Part shown: positions 1 to 3,000 of the stretch, in pieces
Layout: each line of letters opens with the position of its first letter
Numbering within the stretch: position 1 is the first letter of the stretch
Origin: Escherichia coli
GTDB taxonomy: Bacteria; Pseudomonadota; Gammaproteobacteria; Enterobacterales; Enterobacteriaceae
DNA: 64,000 bases
Strand: one strand, 5' to 3'
NCBI RefSeq assembly: GCF_003018115.1
Contig: NZ_CP027457.1
Position numbers: made by a program

Positions 1-3000
1 GCTCCCAATGCAAAACATATATTGCATTGGGAGCATATTCATATTTTTGTTATTCTTGTATGAAATCGTCTCATGTACACGGTCCTTTTTCGCCGAAAAC
101 TGATATTACTTTAATCAAAAGTTGACGTGCCAGATTCGAAGTAAATTTATAAAATATCAAATCAATATACATTTTGCACCTTCGAGATAGTAATGGCTGT
201 TACTGTAACATGAGTTACAAACAGCTTCATACCCAGAGCTACTGATGTATCAACACGATTCAACAATACCCGATATTTATTCCATGCCTCCAGCAACGAT
301 CTTTCTTCCTCCGTTGCGATTTCCAGATCTACAGCATCCTGCAGTGGCGCAATATACTCACTGAATTCCTGGATGTAGAACTGTGTGGTGACGGTCTTCC
401 AGCCATTCGGCTCCTGCTGTATCGAAGCATACCAGGCTATTTCAATATCGCTATGCTGCGGCAGCATTTAACCCCTTGTAATTCATCGCCATAATTGATT
501 TAATTCACAAATAAAACTATAACATGGTGAAATTAATGAAAAAAAACACAGATGATGGGGCTAAAATTTACACACCACTTACCCTAAAGCTTTATGACTG
601 GTGGGTTTTGGGAGTATCAAATCGGCTTGCATGGGGATGTCCTACAAAGGAACACCTTCTTCCACACTTTCTGGAACATTTAGGTAACAACCATCTGGAT
701 ATTGGTGTTGGAACTGGGTTTTACCTTACTCACGTACCTGAGAGTAGTCTGATATCTTTAATGGATTTGAACGAAGCTAGCCTGAACGCGGCATCTACAA
801 GGGCTGGGGAATCAAAAATTAAACATAAAATTAGCCATGATGTTTTTGAACCTTATCCCGCGGCGTTACATGGTCAATTTGATTCCATTTCCATGTTTTA
901 CCTTCTTCACTGCCTGCCTGGAAATATATCTACAAAAAGCTGTGTAATACGCAATGCGGCGCAGGCCTTAACTGACGATGGAACTCTATACGGAGCCACA
1001 ATTCTTGGCGATGGAGTTGTGCACAATAGCTTCGGTCAAAAACTGATGCGTATTTACAATCAGAAAGGCATCTTTTCAAACACAAAAGATTCCGAAGAAG
1101 GCTTAACACATATACTCTCAGAGCATTTCGAGAATGTTAAAACCAAGGTTCAAGGTACTGTAGTAATGTTTTCCGCTTCAGGGAAAAAATAGCATCCAAC
1201 CGCAGCACGTTCTTGCTTAAGACGTGCTGCGGCATAATCCCAATGATTACTCCCTGACAGGGTTCGTAGGCCACTCAATATCAGGTGCAGTTGATGTATC
1301 AACACGGTTCAGCAACACCCGATACTTTTTCCAGGCTTCCAGCAATGAGGTTTCTTCCTCCGTTGCGATTTCCAGATCTACAGCATCCTGAAGTGGCGCA
1401 ATATGCTCACTGGCTACCTGCATCAGGCTGTTTTTTGTTTCTTCCGCCTCTCGGATCCGGAACAGTTTTTCTGCTTCTGCATCTTTCACCCAGGCTGTGC
1501 CGTTCCACTTCTGAAACTCCCCTTCCGGCGATAACCAGGTAACATTTTCCGGTAACGGACCGAGTTCAGAAATAAATAACGCGTCCCCTGACGCTACGTC
1601 ATAAACCGTTTTACCCCGATGGTCTTCAACGAGATGCCACGATGCCTCATCACTGTTGAAAACAGCCACAAAGCCAGCAGGAATATCTGGTGGTGCAATA
1701 TCGGTACTGTTTGCTGGCAGACCTGTATGAGGCGGAATATATGCGTCACCTTCACCAATAAATTCATTAGTTCCGGCCAGCAGATTATAAATTTTTATGG
1801 TCCGTGCTTGTTCACTCATTCTGAATGCCATTATGCAAGCCTCACAATATAGTTAAATGCGATGTTTTTGACAGTGTTTTCCGCGTTACCAGCAGCGTTA
1901 ACGGTGATGGTGTGTCCATGTGAGCCAATCGCAACCGAGTGCGTATGAGCACCAATACCGACAGTATGTGCGTGTGCACCTGCAGATGCAGCGGTGCCGC
2001 TGACACTATGAGTGTGCGCTCCTGCAGCACTTGTATTCACACTGGCCGCAGACACTACCTTATGTACTGACCCATTTTGTGACCACTGGCTGACTGCTGA
2101 TGCGCCTGTGACACTATGAGTATGGTTTCCGGCACTTGCGGCTGTACCGCTCACACTGTGCGTATGCGCCCCGGTGTTATTCGTGGATTTAGTGCCGTAA
2201 TCAAACGACGATGTGGTTTTCGTCCCCAAATCCGTACTGGATGCGCTGGCGCTGTGGGTGTGCGATTTAATGCCGTCCTGTTCCTGAGACAATACGGCCC
2301 GACCACTGGCAGGTTTGCCCTTAATCGTCCAGCTACGCATATCAGGGATCAGGCCTGACGGATAAGCGGCTGCAAGTTTCGGGTATGCAGATTTGTCAAA
2401 AGTCTGCCCCTGCATCAGGGCATAACCAGACGGAACGGTATCTGATGGCCACGGGATTGGTGCACCGACTGGATAAAACTCTGCAGGAGGATGAGCCGAG
2501 GTGTAAAGCTGCGCCCACGGCGACCAGTTTGCGTCGGTCGTATCCCGTCGTGAACGAATAAATGCCGGAGCATGAGCACCGCTTGTACCACTCCAGCCGA
2601 TGAGTAACTCACCTTCGCCAACGGCTGTCATCCCTTTCAGGTGAATGATATTTCCATACGCTGTTGGATATCCGTTGTTATACACCTCGTATAACTCAAG
2701 ACCTGCTGCCCCCTGCGTATTGTCTGTCAGCGCGGCTACCTGACCTTTTGAAGCCAGATTAACTGATGATACTGCTGTTCCACCTGACGGTAGCGCCCCG
2801 ATCTCTGATGCCGTTGGCTTATTTCTGGAGTTATAGTCCCTTCGCCAGCCAGGTGAATAATCTGTTCCGTGATTAATATAGGTAAACTGGGCGTTGGTTG
2901 TTCCGCCACCGCTGGATGTGGTCGGAGTGGTAATGCGGATCGTCATCGCTGACTTTATCCCCATTACTTCAATGACAGCTCCGGCGAGATGAATATTACC

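Follow-up and report, generated by a model that had tools for sequence, protein, structure and literature searches.

How did part of a tail fibre assembly gene, tfa, come to be repeated on the far side of an intact methyltransferase gene, and is anything in this arrangement still at work? The locus that raises this question lies at the left end of a 64,000-nucleotide (nt) stretch of Escherichia coli DNA (NCBI RefSeq assembly GCF_003018115.1, contig NZ_CP027457.1; hereafter the window). The sequence-only reading had described it as a duplication of the tfa C-terminal segment around an opposite-strand methyltransferase gene. The answer that we consider likely is that the region is the end of a DLP12-type fibre module, which an offset crossover left with a dead remnant of a second tfa, and which carries a methyltransferase of the moron type, that is, a cargo gene.

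The locus is the intact counterpart of tfaD-ybcY-tfaX in the cryptic prophage DLP12 of E. coli K-12. Window positions 238-1685 align with the K-12 chromosome (NC_000913, 582-583 kb), where tfaD (b0561), ybcY (b0562, a pseudogene) and tfaX (b0563) are annotated, across 1,448 bp, at 97.9% identity and with just one 2-nt gap; gene order and strands match across all three genes, and the likeness extends to the fusion junction within tfaX. The prophage of the window ends at a tRNA-Arg(tct) gene (44935-45011), adjoining an integrase-sized open reading frame (ORF; 43756-44919), and the argU/ompT site is common to both prophages. The resemblance to DLP12 that had been noted from the sequence is thus stronger than claimed: given the orthology and the shared site, this is the same locus and not a look-alike. 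It differs from K-12 in that the window tfa is full length, whereas tfaD is 5′-truncated and fused to other sequence; in that the window methyltransferase is intact, whereas ybcY has a 2-bp deletion; and in its downstream cargo, an alpha/beta hydrolase gene here and appY in K-12.

The repeat is real. A repeat search of the window found two direct copies of a 132-nt block with 88% identity, slightly longer and less similar than the ~120 bp at ~90% first estimated. Pairwise alignment with MAFFT, the check that had been suggested, found the identical block, with both ends sharp and the flanks unrelated. When the segment was compared by blastn with the whole 64-kb window, only the two copies were returned, the second with E = 3.4e-44, and the repeat is therefore not due to chance. 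The copies differ at 16 nucleotide positions with an excess of synonymous changes (ratio of nonsynonymous to synonymous rates, dN/dS, 0.22; binomial p 0.015), and all intact lambda-type tfa alleles in the phage collection are 85-88% identical to the remnant copy, none above 88%. On the strength of this synonymous excess and of the distance of every intact tfa from the remnant, we read the two copies as distinct tfa alleles that diverged while both were functional. The earlier word "duplication" holds in so far as there are two tfa copies; a repeat made in place does not fit, the copies being, as we read them, different alleles joined by recombination.

Read in the sense of late transcription, the module runs from stf through tfa to a terminator hairpin; after this come the methyltransferase gene, which is antisense and has a promoter region of its own, and finally the dead fusion ORF (Table 1). 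Beyond stf lie lom and then J.

Table 1. Features of the locus (positions in the window unless another sequence is named)
Feature	Position	Strand	Remarks
Hairpin	1..34	+	13-bp stem and T-rich run; fold -23.6 kcal/mol, z = -6.8
Chimeric pseudogene, counterpart of K-12 tfaX	162..467	-	101-aa ORF of three unrelated pieces
Tail of the ORF	162..242	-	non-tfa or heavily decayed; specific to the hydrolase-linked variant
tfa conserved C-terminal-domain segment	~365-243	-	middle piece of the chimera
Codons 1-34 of the ORF	366..467	-	5′ end of a ~80-aa phage gene (PHROG 3893); from sequence comparison
Left repeat copy	243..374	-	tfa-derived; part of the conserved C-terminal domain, about Tfa residues ~137-180
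Mobile methyltransferase cassette	381..1204	.	DNA in common with the tfa-free L014/L016 locus
Divergent intergenic region, chimera/methyltransferase	468..535	.	promoter-like TTGATT-17-TATAAC at 495-523 (+)
Class I SAM-dependent methyltransferase, YbcY orthologue	536..1192	+	218 aa from ATG 536; 222 aa from the annotated start at 524
Stable hairpin between convergent methyltransferase and tfa	1200..1232	.	inside the lambda homology, 1198-1980
tfa, intact lambda-type tail fibre assembly gene, 194 aa	1247..1831	-	matches the full Caudo_TAP profile
Right repeat copy	1292..1423	-	inside the intact tfa
stf, side tail fibre gene, 1010 aa	1831..4863	-	from the ORF list; stop overlaps the tfa start
80-aa gene regions	L026 3001-3566; L025 3001-3569; L024 2662-3300		phage sequences outside the window

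Origin of the repeat

Tfa has a two-domain organisation in common with lambda Tfa, in which a conserved C-terminal domain is a shared module beside a variable N-terminal domain that binds the fibre (PMC9608196). The left repeat copy lies in a 101-aa (amino-acid) ORF that the sequence-only reading took for a tfa remnant carrying only the conserved C-terminal part. The tfa segment is indeed there, but it is not all that the ORF contains. Only residues 31-77 match the Pfam family Caudo_TAP, over positions 75-121 of its 131-position profile; the ORF lacks the fibre-binding domain as well as the Tfa C-terminus, and it is a fragment, not a member of the Tfa family. In PHROGs, residues 1-87 fall in phrog_2341 (an 88-aa family), and the first 37 residues also match phrog_3893 (79 aa).

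The gene that supplied this start is found whole on three Citrobacter-type contigs (L014-L016), which carry a methyltransferase 90% identical to that of the window. In L016 the gene caller placed a 79-aa gene divergent from the methyltransferase gene, tblastn found the same sequence in L014 and L015, and the protein belongs to phrog_3893. The first 37 residues of the chimera share 76% amino-acid identity with the start of this full-length 79/80-aa gene. Compared codon by codon, the chimera agrees with the 80-aa gene as far as codon 34 and with tfa from codon 36 on, and the changeover falls within codons 32-37, around a shared CAG codon; by this comparison, only codons ~35-75 appear to be tfa-derived.

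We propose that one illegitimate crossover, at the level of microhomology, joined two collinear lambdoid genomes. The left parent would have had the order stf-tfa-hairpin-(antisense methyltransferase)-(80-aa gene), and the right parent would have supplied its own tfa from about codon 137 and all that lies beyond, with cargo of the appY/ompT type. Since the crossover points would have been offset, a second tfa 3′ end would have stayed in the recombinant, where it forms a direct repeat ~1 kb downstream of that in the first tfa. Later recombination within the remnant may then have swapped its distal end together with the downstream cargo, which is appY in K-12 and the alpha/beta hydrolase gene here. 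The layout of the left parent matches the usual position of the 80-aa gene in the lambdoid phages HK225 and Midgardsormr38, where it has sense orientation and comes right after the fibre genes. Near codon 60 of the remnant, the identity of the window to K-12 falls abruptly from ~99.5% to ~75%, and the K-12 homology ends at window position 238; this drop, near 238-300, is a second recombination joint within the conserved tfa segment, linked to the exchange of appY and hydrolase cargo. The data are consistent with the suggestion that the locus is a relic of tail-fibre module exchange.

Several points weigh against this account. Among the phages and genomes examined, neither parent was found: there was no intact tfa with a 3′ end of the remnant type, and no tfa-hairpin-methyltransferase order with the 80-aa gene complete behind it. 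At the junction, the microhomology extends over no more than a few bases. The dN/dS of the repeat rests on 16 differences, and the segment is itself mosaic. As for the methyltransferase as a working moron, its promoter is a consensus match together with an in-vitro selection result from K-12, and H-NS binding there suggests silencing.

A second possibility, which we consider unlikely, is that the methyltransferase sits in a recombination-mobile cassette, in which the repeats let the gene loop out as a circle and re-enter phages with a lambda-type tfa. The unit does stand behind three fibre architectures, namely the lambda-type stf-tfa, that of phages 2G7b and PhiR49_1, and the Pin-invertase type of PhiR68_2 and Kati, and one junction between them lies within the repeated sequence. 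Phages 2G7b, ev243 and PhiR49_1 have window positions 1-1366 in common with the locus; beyond 1366, the fibre module of 2G7b and PhiR49_1 is another one, without an intact tfa, and this junction falls inside the conserved Tfa C-terminal segment. PhiR68_2 and Kati, however, share only 238-1232, followed by ynaE and a Pin invertase gene, with appY on the other side as in K-12; they have no tfa fragment directly to the right, and their apparent match up to 1412 is, by direct blastn, a single tfaX copy that matches both repeats. The Citrobacter-type copy has no tfa flanks at all. Moreover, a 532-nt query of the predicted deletion junction found no repeat-to-repeat deletion product in 5,426 complete E. 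coli genomes (0 places with at least 80% coverage), which argues against the repeats as an active excision system, and 132 bp at 88% identity is a poor substrate for RecA.

Tandem duplication of the tfa 3′ end in situ, with later insertion of the methyltransferase gene between the copies, would yield two same-strand copies ~1 kb apart flanking a low-GC gene, but it is very improbable, as the copies are 12% diverged with a synonymous excess, the left one is fused in frame to 34 codons of another gene, which are part of the methyltransferase unit, the intact lambda-type tfa alleles all lie at a similar distance from the remnant (85-88% identity), and the repeat lacks the last 14 tfa codons and the hairpin, both of which one would expect to find in a tandem copy of the gene end.

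The arrangement also calls to mind the invertible segments of the Pin/Gin/Cin type (e14, Rac, Qin, the G segment of Mu and the C segment of P1), in which more than one tfa-derived sequence likewise ends the fibre module; the related phages PhiR68_2 and Kati, indeed, have the methyltransferase gene beside ynaE-pin. In contrast to those segments, the repeats here are direct and not inverted, and a tblastn search with the Pin protein of PhiR42_1 found no invertase in the window; the locus is thus not an invertible Pin-type segment. With the offset crossover as its preferred origin, it is prophage mosaicism of an ordinary kind and already annotated, the scar that recombination between lambda-like phages leaves. 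Its significance as a locus is limited: it is one more case in which lambdoid tail-fibre modules have been reshuffled and gene fragments left over.

The remnant and the spread of the locus

The chimeric ORF is a decaying pseudogene without function, since it carries disrupting lesions and its length is not maintained. Among seven aligned copies, there are four kinds of lesion: an amber codon at position 62 (K-12, PhiR68_2 and Kati), a second amber at codon 33 (Kati), a 7-bp deletion (2G7b and PhiR49_1), and the frameshifted 3′ end of the window type, which diverges from about codon 60. ORFs that start with the N-terminus of the chimera range from 45 to 117 aa in the protein collection, and RefSeq annotates the ORF as an incomplete pseudogene. 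Remnants of the K-12 type retain the normal Tfa C-terminus, which the window type has lost; tfaX of K-12 thus keeps this end in spite of its amber codon. Purifying selection on the ORF was considered and set aside, as what separates the K-12 type from the window type is concentrated in the last third and represents a recombination tract.

Could the ORF nevertheless encode a small protein that works, such as a free oligomerisation domain from the Tfa C-terminus that poisons the fibre assembly of competing phages? The fusion is in frame with its start codon kept, the protein collection has many forms of 89 and 101 aa, in clusters of 204, 304 and 514 members, the spacer upstream holds an RpoD site found by genomic SELEX (systematic evolution of ligands by exponential enrichment), and the conserved C-terminal domain of Tfa mediates multimerisation (PMC9608196). 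Against this stand the four distinct lesions over seven copies, the variable ORF length, the loss of the Tfa C-terminus in the window type and the pseudogene call in RefSeq. In addition, transcripts from the predicted tfaX promoter would lack the start codon, with which its -10 element overlaps. We therefore see hardly any chance that the ORF works as a protein. ORFs of the tfaX type are routinely annotated as "tail fiber assembly protein", when they are fusions of the start of the PHROG 3893 gene with a tfa 3′ end; annotators and pangenome clustering would do well to treat them as pseudogenes.

The locus is widespread. At least 80% of window positions 1-1900 is present in 1,128 of the 5,426 complete E. 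coli genomes, and strain EC93 is 100% identical over this interval. To the left, EC93 has the alpha/beta hydrolase gene, then ompT, envY, ybcH and nfrA; its hydrolase gene ends ~20 nt before window position 1, and the hairpin at the very start of the window is likely the terminator of this cargo gene. An identical layout is found in PhiR26_1, PhiR29_1/2 and PhiR30_1, plaque-forming phages for which K-12, E. coli C or ECOR13 is recorded as the propagation host; phages of the PhiR26_1 type have ompT and the hydrolase gene inside the phage genome. Window positions 1-45011 appear to be a full-length lambdoid prophage at the DLP12 site, with J, lom, stf and tfa at its left end.

The methyltransferase

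Between the repeat copies, the sequence-only reading had placed an intact class I methyltransferase dependent on S-adenosylmethionine (SAM). This stands: the ORF (222 aa as annotated) is uninterrupted, and four Pfam families match above their gathering scores, namely Methyltransf_12 (37.6 bits, cut-off 30), Methyltransf_23 (28.8, cut-off 27), Methyltransf_25 (27.7, cut-off 27) and Methyltransf_11 (24.6, cut-off 21.2). The true start is probably ATG 536 and not the annotated one, because the resulting 218 aa is the length of the homologues and of PHROG 2132, the family to which the protein belongs. In the 536-550 interval, this start is followed by a run of eight A (ATGAAAAAAAAC), a possible slippage hotspot; the 2-bp deletion that inactivates K-12 ybcY falls at exactly this place, where it removes ATG 536 and shifts the frame.

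The enzyme is probably functional, judging by the intact ORF, the preserved SAM motifs and invariant residues, and the selection acting on the gene. SAM motif I is present as LDIGVGTG; over 88 homologues D77 is invariant and G57, G59 and G61 are nearly so, and the window protein keeps all the invariant and nearly invariant residues of this alignment. Inactivated SAM motifs would have spoken against function; motif I and D77 are intact. Against the copies of the Citrobacter and Salmonella types, dN/dS is 0.16-0.19, and the gene is under purifying selection. The earlier suggestion of functional cargo is thus a reasonable one.

The gene lies in a bounded unit. The cassette is 91.6% identical to L014/L016, and its homology (381-1204) meets the lambda homology (1198-1980) within 7 nt, just past the stop codon of the methyltransferase gene. 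The G+C content (GC) is 0.41 in the cassette and 0.55-0.56 in stf and J, and the intergenic region (56-68 bp) is nearly identical between the window and the Citrobacter-type locus. In K-12, genomic SELEX with RpoD lists a ybcY promoter, TTGATT-17-TATAAC, and the ybcY/tfaX spacer is bound by RpoD holoenzyme and also by H-NS (PMC3946193); the listed hexamers are unchanged at window positions 495-523. By analogy with K-12, the gene may be silenced by H-NS under laboratory conditions. It is absent from lambda, PhiR42_1 and ev099, which have tfa. Its low GC, its own promoter-like region, its 3′ hairpin and its variable presence mark it, as far as sequence can tell, as a moron-type cargo gene. The independently transcribed lysogenic-conversion genes lom and bor, which stand between lambdoid phage modules, share the low GC and promoter-like region, as well as the 3′ hairpin, the orientation opposite to the late operon and the patchy presence in related phages. 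Unlike lom and bor, the window gene encodes a cytoplasmic enzyme and not an envelope protein.

What does the enzyme methylate? On the evidence of models and homology, DNA is an unlikely substrate, and most probably the enzyme acts on a small molecule or a lipid head group. AlphaFold2 gives a confident model (predicted local distance difference test score, pLDDT, 94), which shows a single 218-aa domain with a seven-stranded Rossmann-like fold. The nearest structures are all small-molecule or lipid methyltransferases: PmtA, JHAMT, PMT, NodS, SgvM and other natural-product enzymes, the best Foldseek match being bacterial PmtA (PDB 8ys9, E 2.9e-11). Less specific answers came from the other searches. 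The profile classification of the substrate, as had been proposed, reached the class I Pfam families and gave no curated assignment: NCBIfam matches were sub-threshold only (CpaM 17 bits, cut-off 180; RquA 17 bits, cut-off 175), and PADLOC gave a single weak match (mad2, 14 bits). No function is assigned to PHROG 2132, a sequence search of the PDB returned matches to the Rossmann core only, and the viral fold library BFVD returned only generic methyltransferases.

A role as a modification enzyme, which the sequence-only reading had offered as an example, can be weighed against the same evidence. An enzyme acting on DNA or RNA, such as an orphan anti-restriction methylase, is improbable. In a regular-expression search, the 218-aa sequence contained neither of the DNA-methylase motifs (D/N/S)PP(Y/F/W) and PCQ; the protein is a single domain with no target-recognition domain; neither PADLOC nor NCBIfam assigns it; the top structural matches are the small-molecule and lipid enzymes named above; and its homologues are stand-alone chromosomal genes without a restriction partner.

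A more specific substrate can be suggested, with a similarly small chance of being right: the YbcY-family enzyme might be a lysogenic-conversion N-methyltransferase acting on a head group of the phosphoethanolamine type, either free phosphoethanolamine or phosphatidylethanolamine. This weak lead comes from PmtA as the best Foldseek match and from a profile alignment with PfPMT (PDB 3uj6); the two stand for the phosphoethanolamine and phospholipid N-methyltransferases, for which a catalytic Tyr-His pair is expected in the N-terminal helix and after strand 4. In the alignment, the family residues Y12, Y20 and H125 stand opposite PfPMT Y19, Y27 and H132, and mutations of Y19 and H132 are represented by PDB entries 3ujd and 3ujc. 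The hhalign probability is 74% (E 2.7e-5), and a histidine at the H125 position is common in class I methyltransferases generally. The alignment ends at PfPMT residue 161, the C-terminal phosphobase-binding part being unaligned, and the enzyme differs from PMT and PmtA in that sequence identity is 15-21% and TM-scores are about 0.6. If the head-group reading were true, about one in five E. coli strains would have its membrane or envelope chemistry changed by a carrier prophage.

The genomic contexts of the homologues are varied. In Salmonella, Enterobacter and Yersinia, those of 56-65% identity stand alone on the chromosome among unrelated genes, and an 88%-identical copy of the Salmonella type lies on a contig with ccdA/ccdB and kfrA and also on a contig rich in insertion sequences. 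In Citrobacter braakii (L019/L020, 5001-10657), a 68%-identical methyltransferase gene stands beside sodC, a transthyretin-like gene, dinI and sopA-like genes, next to torS, a layout similar to that of a cargo island in a Gifsy-like prophage. Across these Salmonella, Enterobacter, Yersinia and C. braakii contexts, no partner gene was seen to be conserved beside the homologues. For ybcY/tfaX, the literature that we found consists of gene lists, the RpoD SELEX table and a description of the ompT context, with no functional study. The K-12 copy is dead, and this may be why the YbcY methyltransferase has never been studied; yet it is intact, under selection and present in viable phages, and it occurs in about 1,100 of the 5,426 complete genomes.

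Fibre genes and cargo around the locus

The window tfa lies directly downstream of stf, the fibre gene that it serves, and its product matches Pfam PF02413 (Caudo_TAP) with 153.9 bits (cut-off 22.1) over profile positions 1-130 of 131. In EC93 and PhiR26_1, stf is annotated as phage tail protein or side tail fibre. Homology of the lambda type extends over window positions 1198-1980 at 91.3% DNA identity and covers tfa and the hairpin that follows it. The lambda region used for comparison comprises stf (orf-401/orf-314), tfa (orf-194) and the beginning of the b region. Because the lambda homology starts at 1198, the hairpin is assigned to the lambda-type sequence after tfa. Its folding energy is -23.9 kcal/mol on the + strand (z = -5.0), while the - strand gives -28.5 kcal/mol (z = -3.4); it probably terminates transcription in both directions. 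In lambda, by contrast, ea47 follows the hairpin, and there is neither a methyltransferase gene nor a second tfa fragment.

Some minor features were noted in the same interval. The b region of lambda holds a second copy of the hairpin (window 1193-1233), 86% identical, at positions 299-340 of the reverse-complemented lambda locus (L027). RefSeq lists a 45-aa hypothetical protein at 1137-1274 (-), which overlaps the 3′ ends of the methyltransferase gene and tfa and crosses the hairpin; it looks spurious. Within stf, direct repeats at 1945-2176 consist of 40-nt units near the C-terminus with His-rich motifs of the GAHTHS type, and the middle of the gene (3240-4460) is a long repetitive tract rich in Ala, Ser and Thr, with a GC of 0.60. 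Antisense and out-of-frame ORFs of 249-336 aa in stf are probably artefacts of composition.

The 80-aa family of PHROG 3893, from which the chimera takes its start, is widespread in Enterobacterales prophages and is named "DNA polymerase V" by some NCBI sources. In Midgardsormr38 and vB_EcoS-733R5, the 80-aa gene is directly followed by a ~108-aa gene, annotated as UmuD-like in the former and hypothetical in the latter, which suggests that the two are an SOS-related cargo pair downstream of the fibre genes. In HK225, the 80-aa gene stands beside dinI. In the corresponding region downstream of the fibre genes, vB_EcoS-733R5 (L025 94-1578) carries a retron-type reverse transcriptase, which fits a hotspot of cargo or defence genes at this position.

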